DNA of 64,000 nucleotides from an uncultured Actinomycetes bacterium (GCA_963767005.1 CAVYCN010000018.1:32001-96000), one strand, 5' to 3'; numbered from the stretch's first letter, positions 1 to 32,047 are shown. Made by a program: numbers and translations. The notes: generated by a model not told the origin, from the sequence alone.

Positions 1-26
1 ACCACCGCCACGTTCGGCTTGCTCAT
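1..26 (-). CDS. 5' end of a gene running off the window (MSKPNVAV...), product unknown
   Basis: ATG at 26 preceded by an AAGGAG RBS, same orientation as the upstream operon; only 8 full codons visible. Confidence 0.4.
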
Positions 27-221: not shown

Positions 222-1586
222 CTAGATGCCGAGCTGCTCTTCGACCACGCCGATCGACTCGTCGAGCACGCGCACGACCTCGTCGATCTGCTCCTTGCTG
301 ATGATGAACGGCGGCGCCACGGCGTGGCAGTGACCGCCGCCCAGCAGGCGCACGAACACGCCGCGCTTGAAGGCCTCGTCGCGCACCTTGGCGGCCGCGC
401 CCACCGCCGGCGGGAACCACTCCCTGGTCGCCTTGTCCTGCACGTACTCGATGCCGGCCACGAGGCCCACGCCGCGCACGTCGCCCACGATCGGGTGCTC
501 GAGCAGCGTCTTCAGACCCGCCTGCATGTAGGCGCCGACCTCGGCGCAGCGCTCGACCAGGTGCTCGCGCTCGACGATCTCGAGGTTGGCGAGGCCGGCC
601 GCCGAGCAGAGCGGATGGCCGTTGTAGGTGGCGCCGCTCATGAAGGCCTCGCCCGGGCCGCCCAGGAAGGCGTCGTAGACGTGGTCCTTGGCGCCCACCG
701 CGCCGAGCGGCAGGTAGCCCGACGACAGGCCCTTGGCCAGGGTGATCAGGTCGGGATCGGAGCCGAACTGCTGAAAACCGAACCACGTGCCCGAGCGCCC
801 GAAGCCGGTGATCACCTCGTCGTTCACCACGAGCACGTCGTTTGCCTTGCAGGTCTCGCAGACCAGCGGCCAGTACTCGGGCGGCGGTGGGATCACGCCG
901 CCCGTGCCGATCATCGTCTCGCCGAGCATGGTGCCGACGTTCTCGGCGCCGTAGAAGGCGATCTCCTGCTCGACGACCTTGGCGCACTCCATCTTGCAGT
1001 CGTCGCCGTAGGTCTTGTTCCAGGCGCAGCGGTAGCAATAGGGCGCGCCGAGCTTGATGAAGCCGGGCAGCAGCGGCTCGAACTTCTGGCGGTTGACCGA
1101 GAGCCCCTGGGCACTCGTCGAGGTCATCGTGGTGCCGTGGTAGGAGCGGTCGCGGAACAGCACCATGTACTTGGTGCCGTTGCCGCGGTTGCGATGGTAC
1201 TGGCGCGCCATCTTGATGGCGGTCTCGACCGACTCGCCGCCGCCGAGGGTGAAGAACACGTGGTTCAGGTCGCCCGGCATGAGGCTCGCCACCTTGGCGG
1301 CGAGCTTGATCGTGGGCTCGTTCGCGATCTGGAAGATGTGGTAGATCGCGAGCTTGTCCATCTGCGCCTTGATGGCGTCGTAGATCTCGGTGCGTCCGTG
1401 GCCCACGTTGACGGTCCACAGCGACGCGAAGGCGTCGATGTAGGCGTTGCCCTCGGTGTCGTAGACCACGGCGCCTTCGGCGTGGTCCATGATGATCGGC
1501 TTCAGGCCCTGCATCTGCGTGAACGGCGGCCAGAGGTGGCCGAGAAAGTCGTCCTCCAGCCGCGGCGTCTGGCTTACCTCTGTCAT
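222..1586 (-). CDS. Class III (omega-amine) PLP aminotransferase
   Basis: 454 aa; GGESVETAIK, SYHG, DEVITGFGRSG and TLAKGLSSGYLP (PLP lysine) motifs; GAGGAG RBS. Confidence 0.93.
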   Translation of the reverse strand: MTEVSQTPRLEDDFLGHLWPPFTQMQGLKPIIMDHAEGAVVYDTEGNAYIDAFASLWTVNVGHGRTEIYDAIKAQMDKLAIYHIFQIANEPTIKLAAKVASLMPGDLNHVFFTLGGGESVETAIKMARQYHRNRGNGTKYMVLFRDRSYHGTTMTSTSAQGLSVNRQKFEPLLPGFIKLGAPYCYRCAWNKTYGDDCKMECAKVVEQEIAFYGAENVGTMLGETMIGTGGVIPPPPEYWPLVCETCKANDVLVVNDEVITGFGRSGTWFGFQQFGSDPDLITLAKGLSSGYLPLGAVGAKDHVYDAFLGGPGEAFMSGATYNGHPLCSAAGLANLEIVEREHLVERCAEVGAYMQAGLKTLLEHPIVGDVRGVGLVAGIEYVQDKATREWFPPAVGAAAKVRDEAFKRGVFVRLLGGGHCHAVAPPFIISKEQIDEVVRVLDESIGVVEEQLGI

Positions 1587-1618
1587 GGCTCCTCCTCGCT
1601 CTCCTGCCCGGGTCGCCC

Positions 1619-2254
1619 TCAGCGGACGAGCGCCTTGGCGAGATCGACGGCCGCCGCCGCGTTGGCGCCGTAGCCGTCGGCCCCTACCTCATCGACGAAC
1701 GCCTGCGTGACGGGCGCCCCGCCGCAGACCACCTTGACGCTGTCGCGCAGGCCCTCGGCCTGGAGCAGCTTCACCGTGTCGCCCATCTTCGGGATGGTCG
1801 TCGTCAGCAGGCCGCTCATGCCGATGAGGTCGGGCTTGTACTCCTGCACGGCCGCGACGAACTGGGCCGGCGTGATCCCGGTGCCCAGATTGTGCACGGT
1901 GAAGCCGGCCCCCTCGAGCATCATGGCTACGAGGTTCTTGCCGATGTCGTGCACGTCGCCCTCGACCGTGCCGATCACGATCGTGGCGACGGCGCCGCTG
2001 TCGCCCTCGGCAAGGCGCGGCTTGAGGATATCGAGGGCGCCCTGCATGGTGCGCGCGCTGAGCAGAACCTCGGGGATGAACGACTCGCCGGCGCGCATGC
2101 GCTGCCCGACGACGTCCATCCCGGGCAGCAGGCCGCCGTCCAGGATCTCACGGGCGCCGACCCCCTGCTCGAGCAGTTGCCGCGTCAGCTCCTTCGCGCG
2201 CTCGCCGTCACCGGCGATGACCGCCTCTTTCACGTTCTCGTAGGCATCCGCCAT
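1619..2254 (-). CDS. Methylamine methyltransferase corrinoid protein (MttC/MtbC family)
   Basis: B12-binding motif GDVHDIGKNLV...SGLLTTT...GGAP with N-terminal cap domain; start moved to ATG 2254. Confidence 0.93.
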   Translation of the reverse strand: MADAYENVKEAVIAGDGERAKELTRQLLEQGVGAREILDGGLLPGMDVVGQRMRAGESFIPEVLLSARTMQGALDILKPRLAEGDSGAVATIVIGTVEGDVHDIGKNLVAMMLEGAGFTVHNLGTGITPAQFVAAVQEYKPDLIGMSGLLTTTIPKMGDTVKLLQAEGLRDSVKVVCGGAPVTQAFVDEVGADGYGANAAAAVDLAKALVR

Positions 2255-2354
2255 GGCCGTCCCCAGTCTCCTTTCAGCCCGATCCCGCTCGATCACCAGG
2301 CGCGCGCCGACGTCGCGCCTGCCTGAGCCGCGACGACGTGGTCGATCGCCGGCA

Positions 2355-3842
2355 CTAGAAGGTCACCGCGGTCGCCTCGACGCCGAGCTCCTTCTCGGTC
2401 TCCTCGACGATCGCGCGCAGGCGCTCGAGCACCCCGGCCGGCAGCGGCGCCGGCTCGTGCGTGGCGAGCAGCCGGCGCGCCTCGGCCGTGGCGCTCGCAT
2501 ACAGGTCGGCGCCGCCGGCGGCGGCCCAGTCGTCGCGTACACGCCGGTCGATCAGCCTCGCCTGCGACTGCGAGCGCATGTGCTTGTACGTACTGTCGAG
2601 GCTCAGGAAGTCGCCCTGCGAGCCGACCTCGTGGATATCGTCGATCATCAGCAGCTCGTCGGTCACCGGGATGCCGCCGATCGTGAACTTGATGAGCCGC
2701 GCGAACTCGCAATCCATGAGCAGCTGACCGTAGTCGAAGGTGACGCCTGACTCGAGCATCCCCAGGCCGTAGATCAGGTTGGCCCCTGCCAACGCTGGAA
2801 GCAGGCCCGTGAGAGTCTTCTCGTGACCGGACTGCGCGTCACCGAGCTTGGCGTCGCCCTACGCACCGGCGACCCAGCTCGGCAGCAGGTAGAAGCGCGC
2901 GAGCTGGGCCACGGCCGCGTTGATCAGGCCGCACTCGGGGCTGCCGACCGAGGCCGAGGCGAGACGCAGGTCCATGGCCGTCGTCGAGCTGCCGTAGACC
3001 ACCGGCGCGCCGCGCCGAGTGAGCTGGGCCAGGGTGATGCCCGACAGCACCTCGGCGTTGTGGGTGACGAGCGTGCCCGACAGCGAGACCGGCGACGAGG
3101 CGCCCGCCATCGCCATGCTCAGCACGTTCACCGTGCTGCCGCTGCGGGCCGCGCCCATGATGATCTCGCAGCAGTCCTTCACCAGCTTGAGCGGGCTGAC
3201 CGGGCAGGTGATGAACGACACGAGCGGGCGGCGCCGCAGGGCGGCCGCGCCGCCCACGACCGCGGCCGCCATCTCGACGACGCGCTCGAGCAGGTGGCCG
3301 TTGATCGGGCCGATGAAGACGTGCTTGGTCGTGTTGGCGAAGATCGCCTCGGCGTTGTGCAGCGGCACCGCGTCCTGCGGCACGTCGTGCGCGCCGATCG
3401 GGCGCTCGACCACGTCGATCTCGGGCAGCGCGTCGATCAACCGGGTCGCCTCGGCGACGTCGCGCTTGGTCGGCTCGCGCAGCGCGCCGGTCTCGGGGTC
3501 GGTGACCTTGATGCCCTCGCCGAAGTTGGTGAAGCCGACGCGGCCCGGCTCGAGCACGATGTCGTTCTCGGGCACGCGCCCGCAGAGCGTGATGGACGAC
3601 GGCGCGCTGCGCACGGCGTCCTCGACCAGGTGGGCCGGCAGGCGCACGATGCGGGCGTCGCGCTCGACGTCGGCGCCGCCCGCCTCGAAGAGGTCGAGCG
3701 CGGCGTCGTCCTCGACCCACACGCCCGTCCGCCCCAGCACCTCGAGCGTCGCCAGGTGGATGTCCTGGATCTCGTCGTCGGTGAAGACGTTCAGGCTGAG
3801 CCCGCCAGACGCCTTGTGCCCGGCGTGCGGGTTCCTTCTCAT
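2355..3842 (-). CDS. mttB: Pyrrolysine-containing trimethylamine:corrinoid methyltransferase (495 aa, Pyl328)
   Basis: ORFs 2859..3842 and 2355..2792 are in frame, separated only by TAG at 2859-2861; read-through gives LPSWVAGA-O-GDAKLGDAQSGHEKT, matching the known Pyl site of MttB. Confidence 0.9.
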
Positions 3843-3971
3843 GGCTCGACCTCCTTCGAGCGCCTGGCCGCCGCCCGCCTGCGGCGGGCGGCGCCGATCA
3901 GTACCGCGCGGGCGGCGGCCGCAGGGAGAGGACGTCCGCCGCCCGCCCGTGAGTGCGGGAGCCTGTCGTCG

Positions 3972-5405
3972 CTAGTGCTCCCGTCCGTGGTCCAGCGCCG
4001 GCTCACGCACCAGGCCGGTCTTGCGCTTGAGCCGTTCCACACAGTTGATCCTGATGTCGAGCAGCTCGGCGATGCGGGCCTTGGCCTCGAGGCCCTTGGC
4101 CACACCCGGCACGGCGGTCACCGTGCCGATGTCGAGCTCCTCGCGCAGGGTGCGCATGAGGGTCGAGTCGGACAGGTCGGACACGCCGACCCCGAGCTTG
4201 TCGGCCACGTATGCCTTCGCCTCGGGGAGCCTCATCTTTCTGAGCTGCATCCTGGCCACCAGATCTCCAGCGGTCTTGATGCCGCCGATCGACGAGGCAA
4301 GCGCGTGCGCCATGCCCATGCCGTTCGGGTCGCCGGTACCCACCTATAACCCGTCGGCGCGGCCGATCTCGACCATCGCCGCGCTGGCTCGCGTGACCAT
4401 GTCGATGGGCGAGACCTCGAACATGGGCACGCCGCCGACGCCGTTGCCGACGTTCGGGTGGATCGGGATCGTCGCCTCGGCGGTGCAGGCCTGCACGAAG
4501 GTCACCGCGCGCGCCACGTTCCAGGCGCACGACTTCTTCGAGTTGTTGTTGACGACCGGCCCGAAGATGGCGGCGCCGGCCTTCTCGACGACCTTCACCT
4601 GCTGGTGCGGCCAGAGGCCGGCCAGGCGCGTGCCGTCGTACTCGAGCTCGCCGTGGAAGCCGAGCACGTTCTCGGCCGCCATGCCGATCTGGACGGCCAT
4701 GTCGGTGGTGCTCGAGATGTGCTCGCAGGCGCGCAGGGTGGCGAGGAACTCGGCGTCGCCGGTCGAGGCCACCGTGTCGTAGTTGATGCCGTCGGCGGCC
4801 ACCTCGACCATGCGCTCGGACAGCCAGATGGTGTCGGCCTGGCAGACCTCGAGCGCCTCCTCCTGCGTGCGCCGTGCCTCGTCGATCTTGCCCAGCGGCA
4901 GCAGGTCGGACGGGTTCTCGAACGAGCCGTCGGGCCGGTAGTAGAGGCCGAGGTTCGGCATGAAGCCGTAGAGCAGCGGCAGGATGGTGATGTGCTGGAG
5001 CAGCTCCATGTGCTCCTGCTCGACCGTAGCGATGAACTTGCAGGGCTTCACGGAGTAGTCGAGGTGACCGACCTCCATCGAGTCGAAGGCGAAGGCGGTC
5101 TCGAACAGGCGGATCGCCTGCTCGCGGCTGATCGGCGCGGCGATGCCGCTCGACAGGCGCGACGAGCAGAGCGTGTTGACCGAGCCGTCCTTGCTCATGA
5201 CCGCCTCGTGGCCCCGCTCCACGCCCCAGATCCGCTGAGGGCTGGCGAACATGTCCTCGAGGTAGTCGAGCTCGTTCTCGCAGAGCGGCGGCATCTTGCC
5301 CCTCGCGGCGGCTGCCTCCGTGCCCTCGACGAGGTCGCGACGCAGGTCGTCACGACTCATCTGCACGGTGGCGCCGTCCCCCATGCGCGTCGTGATGGTG
5401 CTCAC
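3972..5405 (-). CDS. mtbB: Pyrrolysine-containing dimethylamine:corrinoid methyltransferase family protein (477 aa, Pyl354)
   Basis: ORFs 4344..5543 and 3972..4343 are joined by in-frame TAG at 4344-4346; context [14 protein letters not shown]...GDLVARMQ and N-terminal TRMGDG match MtbB; GTG start with GGAGG RBS. Confidence 0.9.
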
Positions 5406-5502
5406 AACTTCGCCACCTCCTCTGCCGGCCGCGTCGACCGGGCAAGTCCCGCGGTGCCGTCGGAGCCCCGGCGCGGCCTGTATGCGTCCACGAGTTGGCC
5501 GG

Positions 5503-5531
5503 ATGCTATCCCACCCAGGTGGATAACACAA
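5503..5531 (-). promoter_or_regulatory. Putative sigma70 promoter of mtbB (TTGTGT-N17-TAGCAT) with palindromic operator CCACCCAGGTGG (5511-5522) in the spacer
   Basis: Read from the sequence; the same operator recurs at 15134-15145. Confidence 0.6.
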
Positions 5532-5580
5532 GCGGCGACACACCGCCGGACCAGTTCTACGACCTCGTGACGCGGAACCG

Positions 5581-6297
5581 CTAGCCTGCCGCTGCGCCGT
5601 CCCGCGCGGCGAGCCCCCTGAGCTCGGCCATCGAGTTGCGCAGCAGCAGCTCGAGGGCCGAGAGCGGGCGCCGCAGGTCGAAGTGCTCAGGGTCGAGCCC
5701 GGCCTGGATCGACAGGCCGTCGGGGATCGCGGCGATGAGCTCGGCGAGGCCGGTCAGGATCTCGTGCTGGCGGCCGTCAGCGCCCTCGGCGGCGAGGCCC
5801 AGCCACTCGAGGTTCTGGCGATACCACCAGCGATACAGCTCGAACATGCGCTCGCGCAGCTCCGGATGGCGGAACGCGTGCGGCAGGATGTCGAAGAAGC
5901 CGCGGAACGAGTCGGCCCCGACGATCATGCCCTCGATGCCGATCATGGCCGCGTGCAGGCGGTCGTCGGCGCTCACTGTGCGCAGGTCGGCGGCCAGGCG
6001 CAGGCACTCGTCGTGGATGAGGGCGTCGACGACGGCGGCCACCAGGCCGGCCTTGTTGCCGAAGTTGTAGCGGATCGAGGCCTTGTTGACGCCGGCTTCG
6101 GTCGCCACGTTCTCGAGCGTGAGTGCCCCGTAGCCGCGCTTGGCGAGCAGCCGCGACGCCGCTTCGAGGATCTTCTGCGCCGTCTCGGGCAGCGTCGACA
6201 GCGGGTCCTCGAACGGCACCCACTTGCTCGCCTTCTTCGGCGCCGGCGCGGTCCCCCCCGCGCCGGACCTGGTCGTCTGTCGGGCGGCGCCGCTCAT
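5581..6297 (-). CDS. TetR/AcrR family transcriptional regulator
   Basis: KILEAASRLLAKRGYGALTLENVATEAGVNKASIRYNFGNK HTH; ATG overlaps the upstream TGA (ATGA). Confidence 0.92.
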   Translation of the reverse strand: MSGAARQTTRSGAGGTAPAPKKASKWVPFEDPLSTLPETAQKILEAASRLLAKRGYGALTLENVATEAGVNKASIRYNFGNKAGLVAAVVDALIHDECLRLAADLRTVSADDRLHAAMIGIEGMIVGADSFRGFFDILPHAFRHPELRERMFELYRWWYRQNLEWLGLAAEGADGRQHEILTGLAELIAAIPDGLSIQAGLDPEHFDLRRPLSALELLLRNSMAELRGLAARDGAAAG

Positions 6298-7742
6298 GAC
6301 GTCGCCGCGATCGCCGCGTCCGTCACGGCGCAGATCTCGCGCAGGGCGGCGAGCTGGTCGTCGCTCAGGTGCGGGGCGCGGCCGGCCCGCGCGGCGAGGA
6401 CCTCCTCGACGCGCGCGACGGCCGCATCGAGCTCGGTCGTGCCCTCGGCGCGCCAGGCGTCGTAAGGCAGACGCGAGGCGACACGCGGCATGAAGTGCAC
6501 ACCGTTCCTGATCGCCTGGCGCGTGTCCTTCTCCTTCAAGAAGTTGCCGCCGATGCCCACGCGCTCCATCATATCGCGGGCGATGGTCGCCGGGCTGATC
6601 TCGATCTCGCCGAGCAGCCGGCGGATCATCGCCACGATCTCGGCATCGACCACGATCTGCGGCAGGTAGAGCGTGTTGACCGAGTCGATCAGGCCCATGC
6701 CACCGCTCAGCAGGTCGGAGCCGGCCGCCACCGTGACGAAGGCCTTGAGCGCCTTCTCGAAGCCGTCCTGCACGCCGAGATGCTTGGCGTCGGTGCCGAG
6801 GCCCGGCGTCGTGACCGGCAGGCCGAGGTCGTGCAGCACCTCGGTGAAGGCCGCGTCGTACAGGGCCCCCTCGAGGGCGCCGTAGCAGATGCTCGTCGAG
6901 CGCATGTCGAGGATGGTGCCGGACGGACCGCAGATCAGGCGCGCGCCGGGCGACAGCACCTGCAGGGCGGCGCAGGCGCCGAGCAGCTCGGCCAGGCCCT
7001 GGACGACCACGCCGGCCAGCGTGGCGGGCGCCGTCGCGCCCGAGATCGGCACGGTGTAGATCTCGATCGGTGTGCCGTGGTCGGCCAGGCGCGCGTGCAC
7101 GTCGAGCAGGCGACCGTCGAGCGACAGCGGCGAGGCCACCGTGAACAGGGTGCTGATCCGGGGCCGCCGGCGAAACTCCTCGAGGCTGCCGCAGAGCACC
7201 TCGGCGATCGCCAGCACGAGCTCGACCTCGCTCGGGCAGTCGACGAAGGTGACGTGCTTGTCGGTCTCGGTGAGGACCGTGTAGTACTCGATCTTCTCGC
7301 GCGCTTCGAGCGCCACGTCGTTGGCCGTCACCGTGGTCCACTGCACGTCGAGCTCGGGCGTCTCGTCGAGCAGGATCGTGGCCTCGCGCAGGTCGCGCAG
7401 GGTCGAGGGGCGGTGCTCGCCGCTACGGTAGTCGAGCGTGAGCGCGGCGCAGCCGGAGGGCGAGAAGCGCGACCTGCCGCCCTCGCGCAGCACGACGTCG
7501 TGCTCGGGCGTGGCGCCGCCCAGCACGATCTCGCGCGGGCACTGCCGGCGCAGCCGATCGACGAGCTCTGCCGGGAACCGCACGACGCCGGTCTCGTCGT
7601 CGACCGCCGCGCCGGCCTCGCGCAGCCGCGCCAGGTGCCGGGTACCGGCCATCCTCAGACCGACCCGCTCGAGCAAGGCGAGCGCCTCCTCGTAGACGAG
7701 GTGCTTCTCGGCGTCGCTCATCCAGGTCGTGCGGGCTTGCAT
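6294..7742 (-). CDS. Non-pyrrolysine MttB-superfamily methyltransferase
   Basis: 482 aa MttB-like (VASPL, GATAPATLAG, PGLGTDAK...QDGFEK); no internal amber codon. Confidence 0.88.
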   Translation of the reverse strand: MQARTTWMSDAEKHLVYEEALALLERVGLRMAGTRHLARLREAGAAVDDETGVVRFPAELVDRLRRQCPREIVLGGATPEHDVVLREGGRSRFSPSGCAALTLDYRSGEHRPSTLRDLREATILLDETPELDVQWTTVTANDVALEAREKIEYYTVLTETDKHVTFVDCPSEVELVLAIAEVLCGSLEEFRRRPRISTLFTVASPLSLDGRLLDVHARLADHGTPIEIYTVPISGATAPATLAGVVVQGLAELLGACAALQVLSPGARLICGPSGTILDMRSTSICYGALEGALYDAAFTEVLHDLGLPVTTPGLGTDAKHLGVQDGFEKALKAFVTVAAGSDLLSGGMGLIDSVNTLYLPQIVVDAEIVAMIRRLLGEIEISPATIARDMMERVGIGGNFLKEKDTRQAIRNGVHFMPRVASRLPYDAWRAEGTTELDAAVARVEEVLAARAGRAPHLSDDQLAALREICAVTDAAIAATS

Positions 7743-7755
7743 GGCTCGTCCTCCG

Positions 7756-9585
7756 TCAGTGCCGCTTGCCGGTCCCCGGACCGTCGCCGCGCCCCGCGGC
7801 CGGGATCACCGGCAGGACCAGGTGCGAAGCGTGGCGGTGGTCGTGCCGGACGGTCTGTCGGGCCGCGCGGCGACGAGCGTCGGTGCCCGCCGGTCGGCCC
7901 GTGTTCAGGTTGCGGTCGTAGCGGCCGAAATCGCTGCTCGAGACCTCGAGCCGCAGGCTGTGTCGCCGGCCGAAGAGGTGACCCGTGGCCGCCATGTCGA
8001 CCGTGAGCCGCAGCACCTCTTCGCCATCGTATCGCGTGGTGTCGCGCTGCTCGAGCGCGCCGAGGCGCGCGATGCCCTCCTGCACGAGCTGGGCGTGGCC
8101 GTCGGGGAACACGTCGACGAGGGCCGCCGTGAAGTCGGTATCGGGCGCCGACGACGCGACGTGCAGCTCGCACGAAAGCGGACCGACGACCTCGAGCTCC
8201 TCGTCGAGCGGCGCCGTCGTGTAGACGAGCACGTCGGGCCGCGTCTCGAGCGGCCGTCGGTCGTCGAGTGCGGTCGCCATGTCCCAGATGCTGCGCGTGA
8301 GCCAGTAGTCGACCGGTCGCTCGGGGTCGTACACGAACGCGTCGGGCGGCTCGTCTCCGGGGGGCTCGGCGCTGAGGCCGCCGCCGACGCCGCCGGCCCG
8401 GCCGTCCCCGCGCAGGTACAGACGCAGCGGCTCGGCGGCCGGCAAAGGCCAGCCGTCGGCCGTGCGCCAGCGGTCGGCGCCGACCACGTAGACCTGCACG
8501 GTCGGATCGTCCTCGACGCCGTTGCGCACGCCCCGCAGCCAGCGCTCGAAGAAGCGCTCCTCGCGGTCGTAGCACCAGGCGTCGCGGTCGACCGGGATGC
8601 GGCCGACGTGCCCGGTCACGAGCGTGCTCAGGCCGTGGTCGGTCGGTCCGAGCACGAGCTGCTGCACCGTCGCCGTGGCGGTGTGCCGGGCGCTCGCCGC
8701 GGTCCAGGCGGCGAGCGAGGCGTCGAGGAACACGTCGTACCAGCCGCTCCAGTGCAGGCCGGGCACGGCGATCGGTGCCCGCGACAGGTCGCGCTCCTGC
8801 CACCACTCGTCGCGACGCGGGTGGTGCACGAGGTCCTTGAAGGCCGGGCTGCAGGTGCCCGCGGCCTCGTCCATCGTCTCGACGGGCAGGTGCCAGGGAT
8901 CGAAGCGAAAGGAGTTGAGCAGCGCCCGGGCGTTCATCTCGTAGGCCCACTCGCCGATGCCGAGCAGCGAGAAAGCGCCGCCGTGGTAGGCCGCCCGATA
9001 GAAGTCGGGCGCGGTGTCGCCGGGCGCCACGCAGCGCAGGTTGGGGTGGCCGCTCGCGGCGACGGCCCACTGCGTGATGCCGTGGTACGACTCGCCGGCC
9101 ATGCCCACGTCGCCGTTGCACCAGGGCTGGGCGGCGACCCAGTCAAGCGTGTCCCAGCCGTCGGCGGCCTCGTGCACGAGCGGCTCCCAGCGCCCGCCCG
9201 AGCCGTACTTGCCGCGCACGTCCTGCACGACGCAGCGGTAGCCCTTCCGCGCCCAGTAGGCGCCGCGGGCGTGCATATAGGGATGGTCGTCGCGGCCGTA
9301 GGGCTGGCGGATGAGCACCACCGGCAGCGGCCCGGCCGCGCCGCTGGGATGGAACACGTGGGCCCGCAACGCGACGCCGTCGCGCATCGGCACGGCGACG
9401 TCGCGCTCCACGCGGTGGCCGGCGAAACGGTCGGGCGTGCGCGTCGGCGTGACCGCACGGGGCACGACGCAGCGCCGGCGGTAGGCCTGGGCGCAGCGGC
9501 GGCCGGACCAGCGCAGCTCGGCCGTCGCTCGCGCCGCCCAGTGTCGCGCGCTCACGCCCGCCGCCTCGATGCCGAGAGCCGCCAC
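7756..9585 (-). CDS. CocE/NonD family serine hydrolase (esterase/peptidase)
   Basis: VPMRDGVAL, RQPYG, QDVRG, nucleophile GESYHG, GWYD and a C-terminal PepX_C-like region; start uncertain (9585 or 9465). Confidence 0.9.
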   Translation of the reverse strand: MAALGIEAAGVSARHWAARATAELRWSGRRCAQAYRRRCVVPRAVTPTRTPDRFAGHRVERDVAVPMRDGVALRAHVFHPSGAAGPLPVVLIRQPYGRDDHPYMHARGAYWARKGYRCVVQDVRGKYGSGGRWEPLVHEAADGWDTLDWVAAQPWCNGDVGMAGESYHGITQWAVAASGHPNLRCVAPGDTAPDFYRAAYHGGAFSLLGIGEWAYEMNARALLNSFRFDPWHLPVETMDEAAGTCSPAFKDLVHHPRRDEWWQERDLSRAPIAVPGLHWSGWYDVFLDASLAAWTAASARHTATATVQQLVLGPTDHGLSTLVTGHVGRIPVDRDAWCYDREERFFERWLRGVRNGVEDDPTVQVYVVGADRWRTADGWPLPAAEPLRLYLRGDGRAGGVGGGLSAEPPGDEPPDAFVYDPERPVDYWLTRSIWDMATALDDRRPLETRPDVLVYTTAPLDEELEVVGPLSCELHVASSAPDTDFTAALVDVFPDGHAQLVQEGIARLGALEQRDTTRYDGEEVLRLTVDMAATGHLFGRRHSLRLEVSSSDFGRYDRNLNTGRPAGTDARRRAARQTVRHDHRHASHLVLPVIPAAGRGDGPGTGKRH

Positions 9586-9591
9586 CCCGCC

Positions 9592-11372
<1,781 letters not shown>

Positions 11373-11376
<4 letters not shown>

Positions 11377-12305
11377 CTCGCACCTGTGTCCCTGTCGATG
11401 CCGATCATCGCCCGTGAGACGCCGTCGGTCACGAGATTGGTGCCGATGGTGAGCAGCGCGATCATCAGAACGGGCACGAACACCGCCCACGGCTGCACGA
11501 TGATGGCGACCCGGTTCTCGTTGATCATGAGGCCCCAGTCGGCGGCCGGCGGCTGCATGCCGAAGCCGAGGAAGCTGAGGGCCGCGATCAGTCCGATCGA
11601 ATAGGTGAGGCGCAGGCCGAACTCGACGAGCAGCGGGCTCGTGATGTTCGGCAGGATCTCACCGACCAGGATCCTGCGGCGCGGCACGCCGAGCGCCTCG
11701 GAGGCGCGCACGAAGTCGCGGCCCACGATCTCGAGCGTGGCGCCGCGGGCGACGCGGGCGATGCGCGGCGCGTGCGTGATCGCCGTCGCCAGGACCAGCA
11801 GCCAGAGCGCGTGACCGAGCACCGAGACGAGCAGCAGGACGAACACGATCTGGGGAAAGGCGAGCAGCACGTCGAGCAGGCGCATGATGACGTCGTCGAC
11901 AGCCGCTCGCGAGTAGCCGGCCAGCAGCCCCAGGCCGACGCCCAGGACCATGGCGAGCACCGTGGCGATCACCGAAAGGCCGATCACCGTGCGACCGCCA
12001 CAGAGCACCCTGCTCAGCACGTCGCGGCCGATGCCGTCGGTGCCGAGCAACGCCTTGGCGGAGGGGCCCGAGTAGTCGGGGGCTATGCCGGTGGCAAACG
12101 GCGAGTGCGGTGCCACGTACGGCCCGATCAGGGCGACGGCGACGATCACCACGACGATGCCGAGGCCGACCCTGGTGCGGCCGAACCTGAGCGAGGCGAC
12201 GAGCATGCCGACCCACTCCCGTCTCCGACGAGTCGGCTGCGCATCGGGCGGCGCCTCGCCGGTGCCGGGGAGAAGCTCCTGGGTGTCTGGCGTGACGGCG
12301 CTCAT
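11373..12305 (-). CDS. Peptide ABC transporter permease (DppC/OppC-like)
   Basis: LGTDGIGRDVLSR, EAA-like loop, GMQPPAADWG; several TM segments. Confidence 0.92.
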
Positions 12306-13267
12306 CGCAGACCGGTCCTGAGTCGCGGGCTGACGAGGATGGTGAGGATGTCGGCGGCGAGGTTGGCCACGACGTAGACACCGGCGATCAGCAGCGCGAT
12401 CGCCTGGATGACGGGGATGTCGCGGTTGACCACGGCATCGACGAAGCCGGCGCCGATGCCGGGGTAGTTGAAGACCCACTCGACGACCACGACGCCACCG
12501 GCAAGCCAGGCGAGCTGCAGGGCCGAGACCTGGATGGCCGGGATCACCGCGTTGGGCAGGGCGTGCCGCGACATGACGGTGCGCTCGGGCATGCCCTTGA
12601 GACGAGCCATCTGCACGTAGTCGCTCTCGAGCACCTCGATCATCGAGGCGCGCAGGATGCGGCTGATGTACGGCGCCACCGCCAGGACGAGGGTGGCCAC
12701 CGGCAGCACGAGCAGGTTGAGTTGGCTCCAGATCGAGGCGTTCGGGTCGATCCGCGACACCCCCGGCATGACGTGGAGCACGTTGGTGGCCAGGAAGAAG
12801 AGCAGCAGCATGGCGATGACGAACTCGGGCATCGCCGCCAGGGCGAGCGAGCCCACCGAGGTCGTGAGGTCGAACAGCGAGTCGCGCCATAGGGCGGCGA
12901 GCGAGCCGATCAGGATCGAGACCGGGATGCTCACGATGGCCGCGAAGAGCACGAGCAGCGCCGAGTTCGTGACGCGCGATCTCAGGAGCGACGTGACCGA
13001 CACACCCGATGCCGTCGAGGTGCCGAGATTCCCCGAGGCGATGTCCTTGAGCCAGATGCCGTACTGGACGTAGCGCGGCCGGTTCAGGTGGAGCTGCAGG
13101 CGCAGCGCGTTGTACATCGCCTTGTCGGCGGCCTGCTTGCCGAGGATCGCCCGCGCGGGATCGCCCGGCAGCGCCTGCGTCGCGGCGAAGATGACGACCG
13201 AGACCAGGAACAGCGTGAGGACGCCCAGGGCAAGCCGGCGAAGGATGAGTTTCAACAGCGGTGGCAC
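12302..13267 (-). CDS. Peptide ABC transporter permease (DppB/OppB-like)
   Basis: LPGDPA, DYVQMARLKG, VEWVFNYPGIG, RDIPVIQ motifs. Confidence 0.93.
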   Translation of the reverse strand: MPPLLKLILRRLALGVLTLFLVSVVIFAATQALPGDPARAILGKQAADKAMYNALRLQLHLNRPRYVQYGIWLKDIASGNLGTSTASGVSVTSLLRSRVTNSALLVLFAAIVSIPVSILIGSLAALWRDSLFDLTTSVGSLALAAMPEFVIAMLLLFFLATNVLHVMPGVSRIDPNASIWSQLNLLVLPVATLVLAVAPYISRILRASMIEVLESDYVQMARLKGMPERTVMSRHALPNAVIPAIQVSALQLAWLAGGVVVVEWVFNYPGIGAGFVDAVVNRDIPVIQAIALLIAGVYVVANLAADILTILVSPRLRTGLR

Positions 13268-13294
13268 GCCGCTCCCCCCTTCGATAGCGGGACC

Positions 13295-13335
13295 GCCCCG
13301 GCGCCCCGGCCCGTGGCGGGCCGGGGCGCCGGGGC
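13295..13335. terminator. 19-bp perfect GC stem-loop between the SBP and permease genes (mRNA stabiliser or partial terminator)
   Basis: GCCCCGGCGCCCCGGCCCG-TGG-CGGGCCGGGGCGCCGGGGC. Confidence 0.6.
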
Positions 13336-13355
13336 TCGCGCCCCTTCAGCTTCGA

Positions 13356-14966
13356 TCAGACGAAGTAGAACTTGTTGAAGTGGAAGCTCGAGAGCGGCAC
13401 GCCGCCCTTGTCGGGCACGACGCCGCCGAGCTTGGCGCTGAAGGCGTCGGTCTGGTCGTTGAACGCCCAGACAATGAGGCCGCCCCGCTCCTGCTCGATG
13501 GTCTGCGCCTCGCCGACGAGCTGGTCGCGCGCGGTCTTGTCGCCGGTCTTGAATGCCTGCTGCACGACCTTGAGCCACTGGGCATCCTTCCAGTGGGTCT
13601 CGTTGAACGGTGCGGTCGGCAGCGTGCCCTGGGCGGTCTGAGCCAGGTAGTTGCGGGTGTACCAGAAATCCTGGGCAAAGGGCCAGGTGAGGTACTGGTT
13701 GCCGTAGAAGATGCTGGCGTCGACCTTGTTCACGTCGACCGTGACACCGGCCGCCTTGGCCTGCTGAGCAAAGACCTGGGCGGCGAGGACGGCCGAGCCA
13801 CCGACCGCGTCGGACGTGGTCAGGGTGACCTTGAGGTCGTTGTTGTAGCCCGCCTGGCTGAGCAGCGACTTGGCCTTCTCGATGTCCTGCACGCGCTGCT
13901 GCAGTTGCGGCGTGCCGGGGTCGAACGGCGCGTACATGTCGTTGCCGGCCCAGCCGTAGCTGTTGTAGGCCTGCGAGATCATCGCCTGGCGGTCGATCAT
14001 CAGGCGGAATGCCTGACGTACGCGCACGTCGTTGAAGGGCTTGACGTCCATGCGCATGGTGAAGGGCTGCCAGGCGCCGGTGTGGGCGTCGAGCACCTTC
14101 ATGCCCTGGGCCTGGACGACCTTGACCTGCGAGCTCGGCAGGTCGGAGATCGCGTCGACGTTGCCGCCCAGCAGGGCGTTCACGCGGGCCGTCGGGTCGC
14201 CGAACTCGATGATCGTGAGCTGGTCGACGTGCGGCGCCTCGCCCCAGTACTCCTTGTTGGCCGCGAAGACGATCTGCTGGCCGGGCGAGAAGCTGCTGAG
14301 CTTGAAGGGGCCGGTGCCTATGGGCTGCTTCGGGTTGAAGCTCTGCGGCACGATGGTGTTGCCGTAGACGGCCATCGCCTCGTCGAAGACGGAGTTCGGC
14401 GCGTCGAGGGTGAACTGCACCGTGCTCGCGTCGACCTTCCTGATGCCGCTCGCTTTGAGTGCCGCGAGCTGAGTGGCACCCATCTTCGGGTTCTTGGGGT
14501 CGATGATGCGCTTGTAGCTGTAGACCACGTCGTCGGCCGTCATCGGCGTGCCGTCGTGGAAGACGACGCCGCTGCGCAGCTTGACGGTCCAAACCGTGGC
14601 GTCGGTGTTCGGCGTGACCTCCTCGGCCAGGAGGTTCACCAGCTTGTAGTCCTGGTCCCAGCCGAGCAGCGCGTCGTAGAGCTGGAACGTGATGGCGATC
14701 TCGGGCTCGGTCGTGGCGAGCTGGCCGTCGAGGTGCTCGTTCGCCGAGCCGCCGACGATGCCGATCCGCAGGTTGCCGCCCTGCTTCGGCGTCGCCGAGC
14801 TCGACGCGCTCGAGCCCGAGCTGCTGCTCGTGTTGCTGCCGCACGCGGCGAGCACCGAGGCGAGACTGACGCCGGCCCCCGCAACCAGGGCCCCCTTCAG
14901 CACGTCGCGCCGGGTGTACTTCGCGTCCGTGAAGTTGAGCGGGAACGAACGGTCTGCTCCGTCCAC
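13356..14966 (-). CDS. ABC transporter substrate-binding lipoprotein, family 5, Tat-exported
   Basis: Twin-arginine TRRDVLK, lipobox LAAC, Ser-rich linker, FHDGTPMTADDV, GTGPFK, VRVRQA. Confidence 0.93.
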   Translation of the reverse strand: MDGADRSFPLNFTDAKYTRRDVLKGALVAGAGVSLASVLAACGSNTSSSSGSSASSSATPKQGGNLRIGIVGGSANEHLDGQLATTEPEIAITFQLYDALLGWDQDYKLVNLLAEEVTPNTDATVWTVKLRSGVVFHDGTPMTADDVVYSYKRIIDPKNPKMGATQLAALKASGIRKVDASTVQFTLDAPNSVFDEAMAVYGNTIVPQSFNPKQPIGTGPFKLSSFSPGQQIVFAANKEYWGEAPHVDQLTIIEFGDPTARVNALLGGNVDAISDLPSSQVKVVQAQGMKVLDAHTGAWQPFTMRMDVKPFNDVRVRQAFRLMIDRQAMISQAYNSYGWAGNDMYAPFDPGTPQLQQRVQDIEKAKSLLSQAGYNNDLKVTLTTSDAVGGSAVLAAQVFAQQAKAAGVTVDVNKVDASIFYGNQYLTWPFAQDFWYTRNYLAQTAQGTLPTAPFNETHWKDAQWLKVVQQAFKTGDKTARDQLVGEAQTIEQERGGLIVWAFNDQTDAFSAKLGGVVPDKGGVPLSSFHFNKFYFV

Positions 14967-15133
14967 TGCGCACTCCCCCCTATCCTGACTTGACGTCGTC
15001 GTCGAGCCCGAGCCTGCAACCGGCGAGGCCACGGTCAGCGAGGCGAGACGTCCACGCGACCCCGTCGGCCGCAGGTCCGGCCCCGGCCCCGGGACGATGA
15101 GCCCCGGGCAACTGCCGGACCCTGCGGATTCAT

Positions 15134-15181
15134 CCACCTGGGTGGTTTGACGAATGCTATCAGCGCCGGCGGCGTTGTCAA
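15134..15181 (-). promoter_or_regulatory. Putative sigma70 promoter of the ABC operon (TTGACA-N16-TAGCAT) followed by operator CCACCTGGGTGG (15134-15145)
   Basis: Consensus -35 at 15176-15181, -10 at 15154-15159, palindrome just downstream of the predicted TSS. Confidence 0.65.
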
Positions 15182-16597: not shown

Positions 16598-17632
16598 TCA
16601 GCAGATGCGCGGCAGCAGCTCGCCGACCGGCATATCGATCACCCGGCGGGTGCCGAACGCGGTGCGCAGCGCGACCCGGCCGCGATGCCCCTCGACGATC
16701 GTGCCGATGCACGCTGCGCGGGCGCCCTCGGGGCGCCCGCGCAGCGCCGCGAGCACCGCGCCGGCCGCGTCGGGGGCCACGGCGAACAGCATCTTGCCCT
16801 CGTTGGCAAGGGCGAGCGGGTCGTAGCCGAGCAGCTCGCAGGCGGAGCGCACCGCCGGCGACACCGGCAGCGCCTCCTCGTCGACCTCGACCCCGAGGCC
16901 CGCCTCTTCGGCGAGCTCGGCGAGCACGGTGGCCAGACCGCCGCGAGTAGGGTCGCGCATGAAGTGCACGCCGCCGCCGGCGGCCGCCAGGGCGGCCTCG
17001 ACCAAGTGCCAGAGCGGGGCGCAGTCGCTGCGCACGTCGAGGCTCAGGTTGAAGTCGCCGCGGGCGGCCACCACGGCCAGGGCATGGTCGCCGAGCGTGC
17101 CCGAGATCAGCAGCGCGTCGCCGAGGGCGACGGCCGCCGCCGAGACCTCGTGGTCGACCACGATCTCGCCCACGCCGGTCGTCGTGATGAACAGGCCGTC
17201 CGCGGCGCCGCGCTGCACCACCTTGGTGTCGCCGGTCACGATCGCGACCGGCGCCTCGGCGGCGGTCGCGGCCATGCTGGCGCAGACCTCGTGCAGGCGG
17301 GCCAGCTCGAAGCCCTCTTCGATGACGAAGGCGGCGGCGAGGCCCAGCGGCCTCGCCGCCGCCGTCGCCAGGTCGTTCACGGTGCCGGCCACCGCCAGGC
17401 GGCCGATGTCGCCGCCGGCGAAGGTGAGCGGCTGCACGACGTGGGCGTCGGTGGTGAGCGCCACGCGGCCGCTCACCGCCAGGGCGGCGGCGTCGTCGAG
17501 GCGCGCCAGCACGGGATTGTCGAAGTGGCGTAGGAACACGTCGCGCACCAGGTCGCGATACAGGCGGCCGCCGCTGCCGTGCCCGAGCAGGACGCGCGGC
17601 TCGCCGTCGGCCGCGCGTCCGCCGTCAGACAT
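16598..17632 (-). CDS. hypE: Hydrogenase maturation carbamoyl dehydratase HypE
   Basis: GHGSGG, GGDIGRLAVAGTVNDL, MRDPTRGG, C-terminal LPRIC. Confidence 0.96.
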   Translation of the reverse strand: MSDGGRAADGEPRVLLGHGSGGRLYRDLVRDVFLRHFDNPVLARLDDAAALAVSGRVALTTDAHVVQPLTFAGGDIGRLAVAGTVNDLATAAARPLGLAAAFVIEEGFELARLHEVCASMAATAAEAPVAIVTGDTKVVQRGAADGLFITTTGVGEIVVDHEVSAAAVALGDALLISGTLGDHALAVVAARGDFNLSLDVRSDCAPLWHLVEAALAAAGGGVHFMRDPTRGGLATVLAELAEEAGLGVEVDEEALPVSPAVRSACELLGYDPLALANEGKMLFAVAPDAAGAVLAALRGRPEGARAACIGTIVEGHRGRVALRTAFGTRRVIDMPVGELLPRIC

Positions 17633-18725
17633 CGCCGTCCTCCGGCTCCTCGATCGCCCGATAGCGGAAGTGCGCGGCGCAGGAGCCCTCGCTCGACACC
17701 ATGCAGGCGCCGACCGGCGTCTCGGGCGTGCAGCGCCGTCCGAACAGGGCGCACTGCGCGGGGTCGATCAGACCGCGCAGCACCTCGCCGCAGCGGCACC
17801 CGCGCGGCTCGATCGGCTCGCCGGGGTCGACGGAGAAGCGTTCCTCGGCGGCGAGGTCGCGGTACTCGGCGGCGAGGCGCAGACCGGAGCCCGGGATCGG
17901 CCCGAGACCGCGCCAGACCGCGTCGCAGGGCTCGAACACGCGCGCGAGGAGCTCCTGGGCGACGCGGTTGCCGGCCGGCGCCACGGCGCGCCGGTAGCCG
18001 TTCTCGATCGCCGGCCGGGCCTGCCGGGCGAGCATGAGCAGCGCCTCGAGCACGTCGTCGGGGCCGAAGCCGGCGACCACCCCGCCGACGCCGTAGTCGG
18101 AGACGAGGAACCGGTAGGCGTCGCTGCCGGTGACCACACTGACGTGGCCCGGCAGGATGAAGCCGTCGATGCGCGACTCGCCCGCGTCGAGCAGCGCTCG
18201 CAGGGCGCCCGGCATCGTCTTGTGCAGGCTGAGCACGGAGAAATTGGCGAGGTGGCGCTCGCGGGCCAGCACGACGGCGCCGGCCACGGTCGGGGCGGTC
18301 GTCTCGAAGCCGATGCCGGCCAGCACGAACTGGCGGTCGGGCTCGGCGGCCGCCAGGTCGAGCGCGTCGAGCGGCGAGTAGACCACGCGCACGTCGGCCC
18401 CGGCGGCGCGCTCGCGCGCGAGGCTGCTACGCGAGCTCGGCACGCGCACGAGGTCGCCGAAGGTGACGATCGTGACCTCGGGCAGGCGCGCGAGGGCGAC
18501 GACGACATCGAGGTCGCCGACGGCCGTCACGCAGACCGGACAGCCGGGCCCGGACACCAGGCCCACGCCCGGCGGCAGCAGGTCGCGCAGACCGTAGCGC
18601 GAGATCGCCATCGTGTGGGTGCCGCAGACCTCCATGTAGGTGCGGTCTCCCCCACCGACGCTCGCCAGGGCCGCGGCGAGACCGGCGATGCGCGCGGCGT
18701 CGGGCGTTCTGGTCGGCCCGGCCAC
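17625..18725 (-). CDS. hypD: Hydrogenase maturation protein HypD
   Basis: MEVCGTHT, SGPGCPVCVT, GFETT, PGHVS, CMVSSEGSCAA. Confidence 0.96.
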   Translation of the reverse strand: MAGPTRTPDAARIAGLAAALASVGGGDRTYMEVCGTHTMAISRYGLRDLLPPGVGLVSGPGCPVCVTAVGDLDVVVALARLPEVTIVTFGDLVRVPSSRSSLARERAAGADVRVVYSPLDALDLAAAEPDRQFVLAGIGFETTAPTVAGAVVLARERHLANFSVLSLHKTMPGALRALLDAGESRIDGFILPGHVSVVTGSDAYRFLVSDYGVGGVVAGFGPDDVLEALLMLARQARPAIENGYRRAVAPAGNRVAQELLARVFEPCDAVWRGLGPIPGSGLRLAAEYRDLAAEERFSVDPGEPIEPRGCRCGEVLRGLIDPAQCALFGRRCTPETPVGACMVSSEGSCAAHFRYRAIEEPEDGDV

Positions 18726-18732
18726 GGCGCTC

Positions 18733-19026
18733 CTAGATCGAGGGGTCTTCGGGGTGCCCGTCGTCGGCCGTGTCCGGCTCGCCGGACACCCTCGGCTGGT
18801 CGGGCTCGGCGCCCAGGCCGGCGATCTCCTCGAACAGGGCGAGCCGCTCGGCGGCGTCGTCGGAGTCGAGCACGGCGATGGCAAAGCCGGCGTGCACGAG
18901 CACGTAGTCGCCGACGCGCGCGTCGGGCACGAGCATCAGGCTGGTCCGCTGGACCAGGCCGTCGGCCTCGATCGTGGCGTCGGGGCCGTCGGTGGCCGTG
19001 ATGCGCATCGGGATGGCAAGACACAT
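18733..19026 (-). CDS. hypC: Hydrogenase chaperone HypC
   Basis: MCLAIP N-terminus, GDYVLVHAGFA. Confidence 0.96.
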   Translation of the reverse strand: MCLAIPMRITATDGPDATIEADGLVQRTSLMLVPDARVGDYVLVHAGFAIAVLDSDDAAERLALFEEIAGLGAEPDQPRVSGEPDTADDGHPEDPSI

Positions 19027-19044
19027 GGGGATCAGCGCTCCAGC

Positions 19045-22468: not shown

Positions 22469-22954
22469 TCAGGCGACGGGCGAGAGGCTCGGCGGACAGG
22501 CGCCGCTGGCGAGCTCCTCGCCGATCAGGGCGACCACGCGCTCGGCGGCCGCGGCCACTGGCGCCGAGAGCTCCTCGCCGAAGGTCTCGACGTCGACCGC
22601 CTCGACCGTGTAGACGACGACCTCGCCCGGCATGTCGTAGCCGAGCTGCTCGCCGAGCTCGAGCGCGGTGCCGAGGTGGATGCTGTGCGCCGAGCCGTAG
22701 CGATGGCCGCCGCGAAACGCGGCGGCGTCGACCCTGCCGATGGTGCCCGGCGCGGCGCCGCTGCGCAGGGCGTCGATAATGATCACCTTCGTGAAGCCGC
22801 GCACGAGCTCGAGCAGGCGAAGACCGCCGACCTCGCTCTCGGCGACCTCCACGTCGCTCGGCATGGGGAGCTCCCGAAGACGATGGGCCACGACTAAGCC
22901 GAGCCCGTCGTCGGAGAGGATCGGGTTCCCCATGCCGAGGACGAGGGTGGTCAT
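22469..22954 (-). CDS. Hydrogenase maturation protease (HyaD/HycI family)
   Basis: VLGMGNPILSDDGLG, IIIDA, SAH motifs. Confidence 0.94.
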   Translation of the reverse strand: MTTLVLGMGNPILSDDGLGLVVAHRLRELPMPSDVEVAESEVGGLRLLELVRGFTKVIIIDALRSGAAPGTIGRVDAAAFRGGHRYGSAHSIHLGTALELGEQLGYDMPGEVVVYTVEAVDVETFGEELSAPVAAAAERVVALIGEELASGACPPSLSPVA

Positions 22955-22957
22955 CTG

Positions 22958-25859: not shown

Positions 25860-25886
25860 TGTCGTCTCCTTATGGTCGCGACCCGC

Positions 25887-27869: not shown

Positions 27870-27883
27870 CTCCTCCTCGCCGG

Positions 27884-31282: not shown

Positions 31283-31283
31283 G

Positions 31284-31493: not shown

Positions 31494-31814
31494 GCGCCCC
31501 CTATCTTGGTTCGATTGGTTCTACAGGCTCATTAGATACCGCCCAACGGTCGGCGTCAAGGGCCTGAAAGAGACCTGTCAAGAGAGGAATCGGACAGATT
31601 TCGGAGGGCCGGCGTCGCTATCGGCAGGACAGGAGTCGACCGGGCCTGACCCGGGTCGACGGGGCCGAAACGAGTCGAGCCGTTGGCGAAACGGCGGCTC
31701 GTATGATCGCTGCGGCATGTGCAAGAGCAAGCAATCGAGCAGGTGCAAAAACCTCCGGCAGATTTCCAGCGCCGGGTCCTCGACAATCGGCGAGTAAGCG
31801 TCACGAAGGAGGAG

Positions 31815-32039: not shown

Positions 32040-32047
32040 CCCGGACA

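Follow-up and report, generated by a model that had tools for sequence, protein, structure and literature searches.

The closest described relatives of the genes treated here are the pyrrolysine (Pyl)-containing methyltransferases of Methanosarcina barkeri, MttB for trimethylamine (TMA) and MtbB for dimethylamine (DMA), with their corrinoid partners MttC and MtbC (PDB 7XCL-7XCN; PMC9842639, in part; what is taken from sources so marked is limited to the portions available). We analysed a stretch of 64,000 nucleotides from an uncultured Actinomycetes bacterium (GCA_963767005.1; contig C18, CAVYCN010000018.1:32001-96000), called the window below, in which a Pyl-MtbB and a Pyl-MttB gene form part of a co-oriented cluster and may serve the anaerobic degradation of carnitine. 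The folds, the Pyl position, the equivalents of Gly110, Met249 and Tyr364 and the adjoining corrinoid gene are as in M. barkeri, whereas MtmB, MtbA and a methylamine permease are missing from the locus, an arginine replaces Leu151, and the two genes are probably co-regulated with an ATP-binding cassette (ABC) importer, an esterase, an MttB-family gene without a Pyl codon (non-Pyl MttB) and an aminotransferase. The genome under study (G000; relatives are labelled G001 onwards and loci L001 onwards) also differs in having seven Pyl-MttB and eight Pyl-MtbB paralogues in differing contexts. In contrast to the classical methylamine locus (mttBC, mtbBC, mtmBC and permeases), mtmB is missing from both the locus and the regulon.

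Two carnitine systems are also comparable. In Eubacterium limosum, the non-Pyl enzymes MtcB (carnitine) and MtyB (gamma-butyrobetaine) move a methyl group of a C4 betaine to the corrinoid protein MtqC; only one methyl is removed and there is no growth on the tertiary or secondary products (PMC8604678, in part), whereas here degradation would be carried to completion by the Pyl pair, the aminotransferase and an oxidation module. Like MtcB and MtyB, the window's non-Pyl MttB has an MttB fold and no Pyl codon. The carnitine route of Acinetobacter baumannii resembles the present operons in its logic, with uptake, a cytoplasmic acyl-carnitine hydrolase encoded in the carnitine operon (PMC13631058, in part), conversion of L-carnitine to malic semialdehyde and D-malate with the stereocentre unchanged (PMC11353897, in part), and a decarboxylating dehydrogenase that yields pyruvate. 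According to the same partly available sources, it needs oxygen and releases TMA, whereas here C-N cleavage would be a transamination after demethylation, without TMA, and the aldehyde is proposed to be oxidised by look-alikes of glyceraldehyde-3-phosphate dehydrogenase (GAPDH) and phosphoglycerate kinase (PGK) with a gain of ATP. The genes in question, in window coordinates unless the contig is named, are as follows.

13356..14966, minus strand: family-5 solute-binding protein (SBP) with a weak twin-arginine translocation (TAT) signal match; PF00496, 280 bits
12302..13267, minus strand: ABC permease, OppB-like; profile matches
11373..12305, minus strand: ABC permease, OppC-like; profile matches
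9592..11376, minus strand: fused double ABC ATPase; profile matches
7756..9585, minus strand: CocE/NonD serine hydrolase, start uncertain (9465 possible); TIGR00976, 402 bits
6294..7742, minus strand: non-Pyl MttB; PF06253, no in-frame stop
5581..6297, minus strand: TetR repressor with BetI-type C-terminal domain; PF00440 and PF13977
3972..5405, minus strand: Pyl-MtbB, TAG at 4344-4346; TIGR02368, 498 bits (cut-off 369)
2355..3842, minus strand: Pyl-MttB, TAG at 2859-2861; TIGR02369, 715 bits (cut-off 525)
1619..2254, minus strand: corrinoid protein; PF02310 and PF02607, below every specific NCBIfam cut-off
222..1586, minus strand: class III omega-aminotransferase; PF00202, 296 bits, below all named NCBIfam subfamily cut-offs shown
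1..25, minus strand: 5' end of the additional GAPDH-like gene (type II), most of which lies outside the window (full gene C18:30986-32025)
C18:29692-30957, outside the window, after the GAPDH-like gene: PGK-like gene, archaeal type
C18:28580-29680, outside the window: tartrate/D-malate dehydrogenase; TIGR02089, 476 bits (cut-off 470), best PDB match 3FLK
15154..15181, minus strand: TTGACA-16-TAGCAT, resembling a sigma70-type promoter, ahead of the importer operon; the only site found (mean 0.6 in shuffles)
15132..15145, minus strand: operator-like palindrome, copy 1, CCACCCAGGTGGAT, directly downstream of the importer -10 box
5503..5531, minus strand: TTGTGT-17-TAGCAT, resembling a promoter, ahead of the mtbB operon; its spacer contains copy 2 of the operator (5511-5524)

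The first-pass annotation of this DNA had described a single co-oriented cluster ending at position 222. Gene calls and profile searches agree on eleven co-oriented genes, all on the minus strand, but they form two operons with a promoter-like site at each rather than one unit, and the second operon runs past the left edge of the window into three more genes. The single corrinoid gene that had been noted is a property of G000 and not a conserved trait, as G008, G003, G002, G024, G062, G072 and G085 have two. The remark that neither mtmB nor a methylamine permease was in view holds beyond the left edge as well, where their presence, together with Pyl enzymes active only on TMA and DMA, had been named as fatal to the idea of larger substrates: no mtmB lies on contig C18 (the genome search gave four matches, all on other contigs), and no permease was found among the gene calls in the 20 kb to the left. 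The genome has 3.44 Mb in 19 contigs with about 71% GC, and is 100% complete with 4.9% contamination. Because it holds 38 MttB-family loci (seven with an in-frame stop) and eight MtbB loci, adjacency alone is weak evidence, and it is synteny and the shared operator that carry the case.

At the importer promoter-like site, the -35 box is invariant in all four aligned upstream regions, and a 31-bp block upstream of mtbB is near-invariant in all six that were aligned. The exact 14-mer CCACCCAGGTGGAT occurs twice in the whole genome, at the importer and mtbB promoters (mean 0.03 in shuffles of the window). We counted the palindrome CCACCYRGGTGG with at most one mismatch within 450 bp upstream, dropping rows too near a locus end, and found it before 20 of the 21 MtbB rows with at least 75% identity (19 of 20 distinct loci, as two rows are one gene), before none of the 20 at 55-75% identity and before one of nine below 55%. 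It also precedes aminotransferase (35/49), SBP (20/34) and tetR (4/11) rows, these three sets not being deduplicated. The loci of relatives, 1.2 Mb in all, contain 71 exact operator sites. The motif is common to three genera despite rearranged gene order, it precedes tetR in several relatives too, and it is the same in G011 and G009, whose TetR is more distant (54-57%); it is absent upstream of the Pyl-MtmB gene of G000. We are therefore highly confident that the two operons are one regulon, and the local TetR is the likely reader of the operator.

In the synteny search that had been suggested, the full gene order recurs in G011, G008 and G003 (CocE is split in the last two, probably by sequencing error), and two further genera have the same parts reordered but preceded by the same operator motif, so that the linkage, whose absence from relatives would have spoken against a joint function, is conserved. 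G002, G005 and G009 have the same parts rearranged or spread across contig ends. In the second genus the genes usually run TetR, Pyl-MtbB, corrinoid protein, non-Pyl MttB, Pyl-MttB and sulfate genes, followed by SBP-ABC genes, non-Pyl MttB, aminotransferase, GAPDH, PGK and LarA. Among 89 family genomes, which are kin and include incomplete ones, the MtbB clade of the window (at least 75% identity) is present in 36; the GAPDH-like gene was found in 32 of these 36 and in 18 of the 53 others, and an orthologue of the aminotransferase in 60 of the 89. The gene set is thus real and conserved, and it is probably one regulon.

The genes downstream of the aminotransferase narrow the skeleton to 3-hydroxy-4-aminobutyrate, that is, to carnitine. 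Housekeeping glycolysis was rejected as a role for the GAPDH-like/PGK-like pair, since a standard gap-pgk-tpi-gpm operon lies apart from it on C2. The closest solved relatives of the pair are archaeal type II GAPDH and PGK (PDB 2CZC, 1CF2 and 2CUN), of which the catalytic Cys motif and the majority of the basic residues of PGK are kept here; the differences are that the genes are extra copies with malate racemase or D-malate dehydrogenase neighbours, that HQ replaces the archaeal GAPDH motif HH (in every row listed, 75 of 82), and that PGK Arg65 (Lys in 2CUN) is replaced by Gly, with HQG[G/D/S] and no Arg65 in the 62 of 63 rows listed. Both positions are ones that we take to bind the substrate phosphate.

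The gene that follows PGK is LarA in 18 of 29 loci tallied, tartrate/D-malate dehydrogenase in three, another gene in three and a contig end in five (36 close loci were found by the GAPDH-like protein). The best hidden Markov model for this racemase is that of the nickel-pincer malate racemase LarAH6/Mar2 (NF052593), a tested malate racemase (PMC7583248 and PMC11770544, both in part), and eight of nine distant LarA proteins tested exceed its cut-off. In contrast, the G000 locus lacks the racemase and has the tartrate/D-malate dehydrogenase in its place, whose TIGR02089 match (476 bits) covers both D-malate and tartrate specificity. Malic enzyme is added in G003 and G002. Aldehyde:ferredoxin oxidoreductase replaces GAPDH/PGK after the aminotransferase in G022, G014, G023, G017 and G097 (with LarA seen in three), and in L137, L160 and G024 the place of the aminotransferase is taken by a GabT-like enzyme. 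In 47 distant, mostly lower-GC loci, the pair occurs with LarA (20), transketolase halves (15 and 17), malic enzyme (13), iolB (8), iolD (6), iolE (7) and iolG (8). L167, L179, L186, L199 and L200 are inositol operons with a split transketolase, GAPDH-like and PGK-like genes and malate racemase or D-malate dehydrogenase, and are candidates for a transketolase route for inositol. If transketolase cleaves 5-dehydro-2-deoxy-D-gluconate, an intermediate of inositol breakdown, the product left over would be (R)-malic semialdehyde, an aldehyde shaped like D-glyceraldehyde 3-phosphate but with a carboxylate for the phosphate. The gene replacements and inositol contexts therefore converge on (R)-malic semialdehyde, with L-carnitine as its trimethylated amine precursor. 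That the GAPDH-like/PGK-like module makes D-malate is, in our judgement, well supported, and the amine of the window is likely to be derived from carnitine.

The first-pass annotation had proposed that a quaternary amine on a larger carbon skeleton is demethylated to a primary amine, an idea which these genomic data support. Aminotransferases need a primary amine, and therefore all three methyl groups must go. MtyB has no detectable activity on 4-dimethylaminobutyrate and less than 1% on 4-methylaminobutyrate (PMC8604678, in part), and other enzymes are therefore needed to reach the primary amine; besides a single non-Pyl MttB, the regulon contains one member each of the tertiary-amine and secondary-amine enzyme families. 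We lean towards the view that the regulon imports (acyl)carnitine, hydrolyses it, demethylates it three times, transaminates the product and oxidises it to D-malate with a gain of ATP; for the narrower claim that the Pyl-MttB/Pyl-MtbB pair acts on a C4 skeleton, the genomic evidence makes a fairly good case. The genes, Pyl codons, conserved linkage, shared motif and gene replacements are observed, and from them we infer every substrate and reaction of the pathway. The family-5 ABC system would import carnitine or acyl-carnitine, and CocE would strip the acyl group. The non-Pyl MttB would transfer the first methyl to the corrinoid protein, leaving norcarnitine, a tertiary amine that Pyl-MttB would demethylate, and Pyl-MtbB would convert the secondary amine, N-methyl-4-amino-3-hydroxybutyrate, to (R)-4-amino-3-hydroxybutyrate. 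As this product carries no methyl, MtmB would not be needed. The aminotransferase would then form (R)-malic semialdehyde, which the GAPDH-like and PGK-like enzymes would convert to D-malate with one ATP, and D-malate dehydrogenase would yield pyruvate, the relatives using malate racemase and malic enzyme instead. The methyl groups would pass to tetrahydrofolate by enzymes encoded elsewhere, TetR would control both operons, and oxygen would not be required for the three-step demethylation of L-carnitine.

The pyrrolysine decoding set of G000 is complete, with tRNA-Pyl (pylT), pylSc, pylSn, pylB, pylC and pylD on contig C3. Pyl-MtbB and Pyl-MttB have one in-frame TAG each, and their read-through forms exceed the NCBIfam cut-offs. 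The TAG of Pyl-MttB aligns with Pyl334 of M. barkeri MttB (7XCL/7XCM), and the counterparts of G110, M249 and Y364 are kept, the catalytic residues Gly110, Met249, Pyl334 and Tyr364 of that enzyme serving as the reference (PMC9842639, in part); the single TAG of Pyl-MtbB falls in the same column in all orthologues shown. A cluster look-up of ten MttB representatives returned a taxon for the Methanosarcina cluster alone. TAG also ends 962 of the 2981 called genes in G000 (about a third, Pyl read-through sites included, mtbB and mttB among them), and the amber codon is therefore ambiguous in this genome, which has a tRNA-Sec as well.

Of the remaining parts, the SBP has no close solved structure (best PDB match E 5e-45), and the PDB search gave no clue to its ligand. 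In CocE/NonD, aligned to cocaine esterase (E 1.5e-91), the Ser-Asp-His triad and the oxyanion Tyr are intact. That its substrate is acyl-carnitine is a tentative suggestion, somewhat short of an even chance; an ester substrate for CocE and a larger substrate for the Pyl enzymes are both assignments that we infer from sequence. The genome scan for CocE gave three close and six distant loci, its wider linkage being seen in other locus comparisons; CocE also lies directly before the aminotransferase-linked non-Pyl MttB in G064, G024, G062, G072 and L160. As for the MttB phylogeny that had been called for, the window's non-Pyl MttB groups (FastTree support 97) with copies that immediately precede the aminotransferase of another genus, and it is a candidate quaternary-amine (carnitine) demethylase. 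The Arg and His of the proposed glycine betaine site of MtgB (PMC6855144) are not kept in it, with Thr at the Arg position and the His missing in the alignment to 2QNE/9YCE; MttB, MtgB and 4YYC are the only structures of this kind in the PDB. The top PDB matches of the aminotransferase are putrescine, GABA (4-aminobutyrate) and omega transaminases, which makes it a candidate 4-amino-3-hydroxybutyrate/GABA transaminase. A pterin-binding methyltransferase candidate and Fhs are encoded on C3, and the genome search found no acetyl-CoA synthase domain.

Release of TMA by CutC or CntA was rejected, as neither a CutC-type glycyl-radical lyase nor a CntA-type Rieske oxygenase had a match in the G000 genome, with working controls. 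Of three HAL-family genes, two keep the motif of the 4-methylideneimidazole-5-one (MIO) type and the third diverges, and none has methyltransferase genes in its called neighbourhood.

A number of observations weigh against the carnitine pathway, and one group of them would fit a simpler explanation, namely that Pyl-MttB and Pyl-MtbB are ordinary TMA/DMA methyltransferases, co-regulated with a carnitine or 4-amino-3-hydroxybutyrate (GABOB) module because TMA and DMA accompany its substrates, with the non-Pyl MttB doing all C4 demethylation or the primary amine being imported as such. Both enzymes satisfy all sequence tests for TMA/DMA methyltransferases, exceeding the equivalog cut-offs, with the MttB catalytic residues (PMC9842639, in part) kept, and methylamines are the only Pyl-enzyme substrates named in the open-access literature searched. 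Actinobacterial Pyl mttB/mtbB genes have been treated as TMA/DMA-specific, peat Actinobacteriota expressing them being regarded as TMA/DMA users (PMC10805028, in part), and a 2026 paper ties Pyl to simple methylamines (PMC13044021, in part). Arg146 of Pyl-MttB, where M. barkeri has Leu151, is present in all 21 cluster Pyl-MttB rows, absent from five of six own Pyl-MttB paralogues and placed at a barrel-strand end (AlphaFold model, secondary structure); as a pointer to an altered substrate it is only a hint, because 18 of 51 other short Pyl-type representatives carry Arg too. G000 itself has a Pyl-MtmB, at C3:80398.

However, no Pyl-MtmB match was found in 34 of the 36 genomes with the window's MtbB clade. 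Pyl-MtmB occurs in 12 of the 89 family genomes and in two of these 36, and none of the cluster loci searched contains mtmB. The two MtmB islands that were opened carry a different MtbB clade and lack the operator. A TMA-forming lyase or oxygenase was not found in the genome, MtyB stops after one methyl (PMC8604678, in part), and Pyl-MttB remains in the aminotransferase operon even in reduced loci. We therefore consider the TMA/DMA explanation unlikely. Beside it may be noted that the C3 Pyl-MtmB (C3:79500-82500, L068) follows a dimethylargininase-like gene and ornithine carbamoyltransferase, a context that suggests release of methylamine from methylarginine; none of the 11 same-genus genomes searched has an MtmB of this type.

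Another group of observations concerns the substrate. The three-step logic may be kept for another betaine or several, such as gamma-butyrobetaine (degraded to GABA and on through 4-hydroxybutyrate), hercynine, or a betaine that is sulfated or conjugated, with the Pyl pair as broad N-methyl-amino-acid demethylases. In many loci of genus g10, an Fe-alcohol dehydrogenase, a CoA-transferase, a likely 4-hydroxybutyryl-CoA dehydratase (named from sequence, the model match being HpaB-like) and GDH flank the aminotransferase, and three of these loci are without GAPDH/PGK. Such 4-hydroxybutyrate-route genes suggest gamma-butyrobetaine or GABA as a second substrate; those of G000, however, are on another contig without the operator, and the last genes of its own operon are those for the GAPDH-like, PGK-like and D-malate dehydrogenase enzymes, which depend on the hydroxyl group. 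In many relatives (L097-L110, L119-L120, L030 and L091), a sulfotransferase-domain gene (PF19798), ATP sulfurylase and SulP are conserved neighbours of the Pyl methyltransferases or of the SBP operon. Carnitine does not explain these sulfate genes, which share operons with the Pyl genes in many g10 loci, but neither the sulfotransferase-like gene nor ATP sulfurylase was found in G000.

Nor does carnitine explain G024 and G062, where the Pyl pair and the nearest relatives of the SBP are followed by M20 peptidase and histidine-degradation (hut) genes; G091 (L082) has the same SBP-M20-hut block, its sequence ending before any Pyl pair. In the hut loci L032 and L077 (G024), L083 (G062) and L082, HutH keeps the ASG motif, which in the G024 operon would need a primary amine, and the urocanase obtains equal scores for HutU and for S-methyl-thiourocanate hydratase; full demethylation of hercynine is possible there. 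The histidine dipeptide or hercynine idea is kept only as a rival because the hut-linked non-Pyl MttB belongs to another clade and the malate module of G024 lies elsewhere. Moreover, G024, G062 and G072 also have CocE-MttB-aminotransferase-GAPDH-PGK-LarA. Another betaine as the substrate of the window is thus an improbable alternative in our view, of about the same standing as ordinary TMA/DMA methylation.

The phyletic pattern also has gaps that do not favour the carnitine pathway. The aminotransferase lies within 35 kb of the window's MtbB clade in 14 of 36 genomes; in three it is 45-87 kb away, in 14 it is on a different contig, and in five no orthologue was found. G016 (97% complete) has an MtbB of the window clade alone, G070 (97% complete) and G081 have GAPDH-PGK-LarA without a nearby methyltransferase or aminotransferase, G001 and G010 have the aminotransferase alone, and G004 and G007 have Pyl-MttB and the aminotransferase with the window-clade MtbB missing. 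Full-length LarA copies of the family score 455-483 bits against the malate racemase cut-off of 500, and the genomes compared are kin and so not independent. A chance neighbourhood of importer, Pyl pair and aminotransferase with unrelated jobs, as the 38 MttB-family and eight MtbB loci and the varying gene order and single losses of parts in relatives might suggest, is very improbable, since three genera have the operator in common at precisely these promoters although their genes are rearranged, and random upstream pairs shared a 14-mer in only 146 of 20000 draws.

Several other loci in G000 and its relatives contain paralogues of the genes discussed. A sister Pyl-MtbB clade with about 70% identity, nested in the window's MtbB clade in the tree (C2:292600-306600 of G000, L058; L035 and L036), stands by itself, its neighbours being three APC permeases, two choline/ethanolamine-kinase-like genes and unnamed proteins, without the operator, and is from its sequence context a candidate N-methylethanolamine demethylase. 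At C6:52866-65105 (L062), a second Pyl-MtbB/Pyl-MttB pair, its MttB with Arg too, lies opposite a related non-Pyl MttB, after which come hydroxyacid dehydrogenase, short-chain dehydrogenase/reductase (SDR), FGGY kinase, FAD oxidase and electron-transfer flavoprotein (ETF) genes; this is likely another betaine pathway. About 13 kb left of the window (L001:5991-11707), a non-Pyl MttB and an enolase-superfamily gene lie beside an arginine/lysine decarboxylase, without the operator. Near-identical stretches with MttB, corrinoid, gap and gdh genes are duplicated between C6 and C9 and between C2 and C3, possibly an assembly or bin duplication that slightly inflates the paralogue counts. Elsewhere in the window, an HdrABC-MvhADG-type heterodisulfide reductase/hydrogenase cluster, here in a bacterium (22469-29319, minus strand; hyp maturation genes at 16598-21606), is a possible electron sink for methyl oxidation. 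An integrase after tRNA-Thr followed by phage-like or integrative and conjugative element (ICE)-like genes (30005-41704) is likely an integrated element. The amidinotransferase/dimethylargininase-like, nitrilase-family, NCS1 transporter, cyclase, ornithine carbamoyltransferase, PucR-like regulator, Fe-alcohol dehydrogenase and amidohydrolase genes at 47769-57695 (minus strand) read as a guanidino or methylarginine catabolic operon.

Our open-access literature searches found no paper on the pathway (subscription journals and supplements lay outside their scope), and in that literature the Pyl-MttB and Pyl-MtbB families have so far been associated only with simple methylamines. What is new here is that a specific Pyl-MttB/Pyl-MtbB pair is tied to the malate module by an operator and a phyletic pattern, with negative controls. 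Genome annotation gives TMA or DMA to any such gene with an amber codon. We are inclined, with due caution, to think that paralogues of Pyl-MttB and Pyl-MtbB have diversified to act on N-methylated amino acids and amino alcohols, that the regulon described here is a complete, TMA-free anaerobic carnitine pathway, and that the sister paralogues in choline-kinase-like and histidine contexts do the same for other betaines. If this is true, the TMA/DMA annotations in peat and soil metagenomes would often be wrong, norcarnitine, whose fate is called unknown in the available part of PMC8604678, would have one, and carnitine would be consumed anaerobically without TMA formation. The 22nd amino acid would then be a general activator of tertiary and secondary amines.

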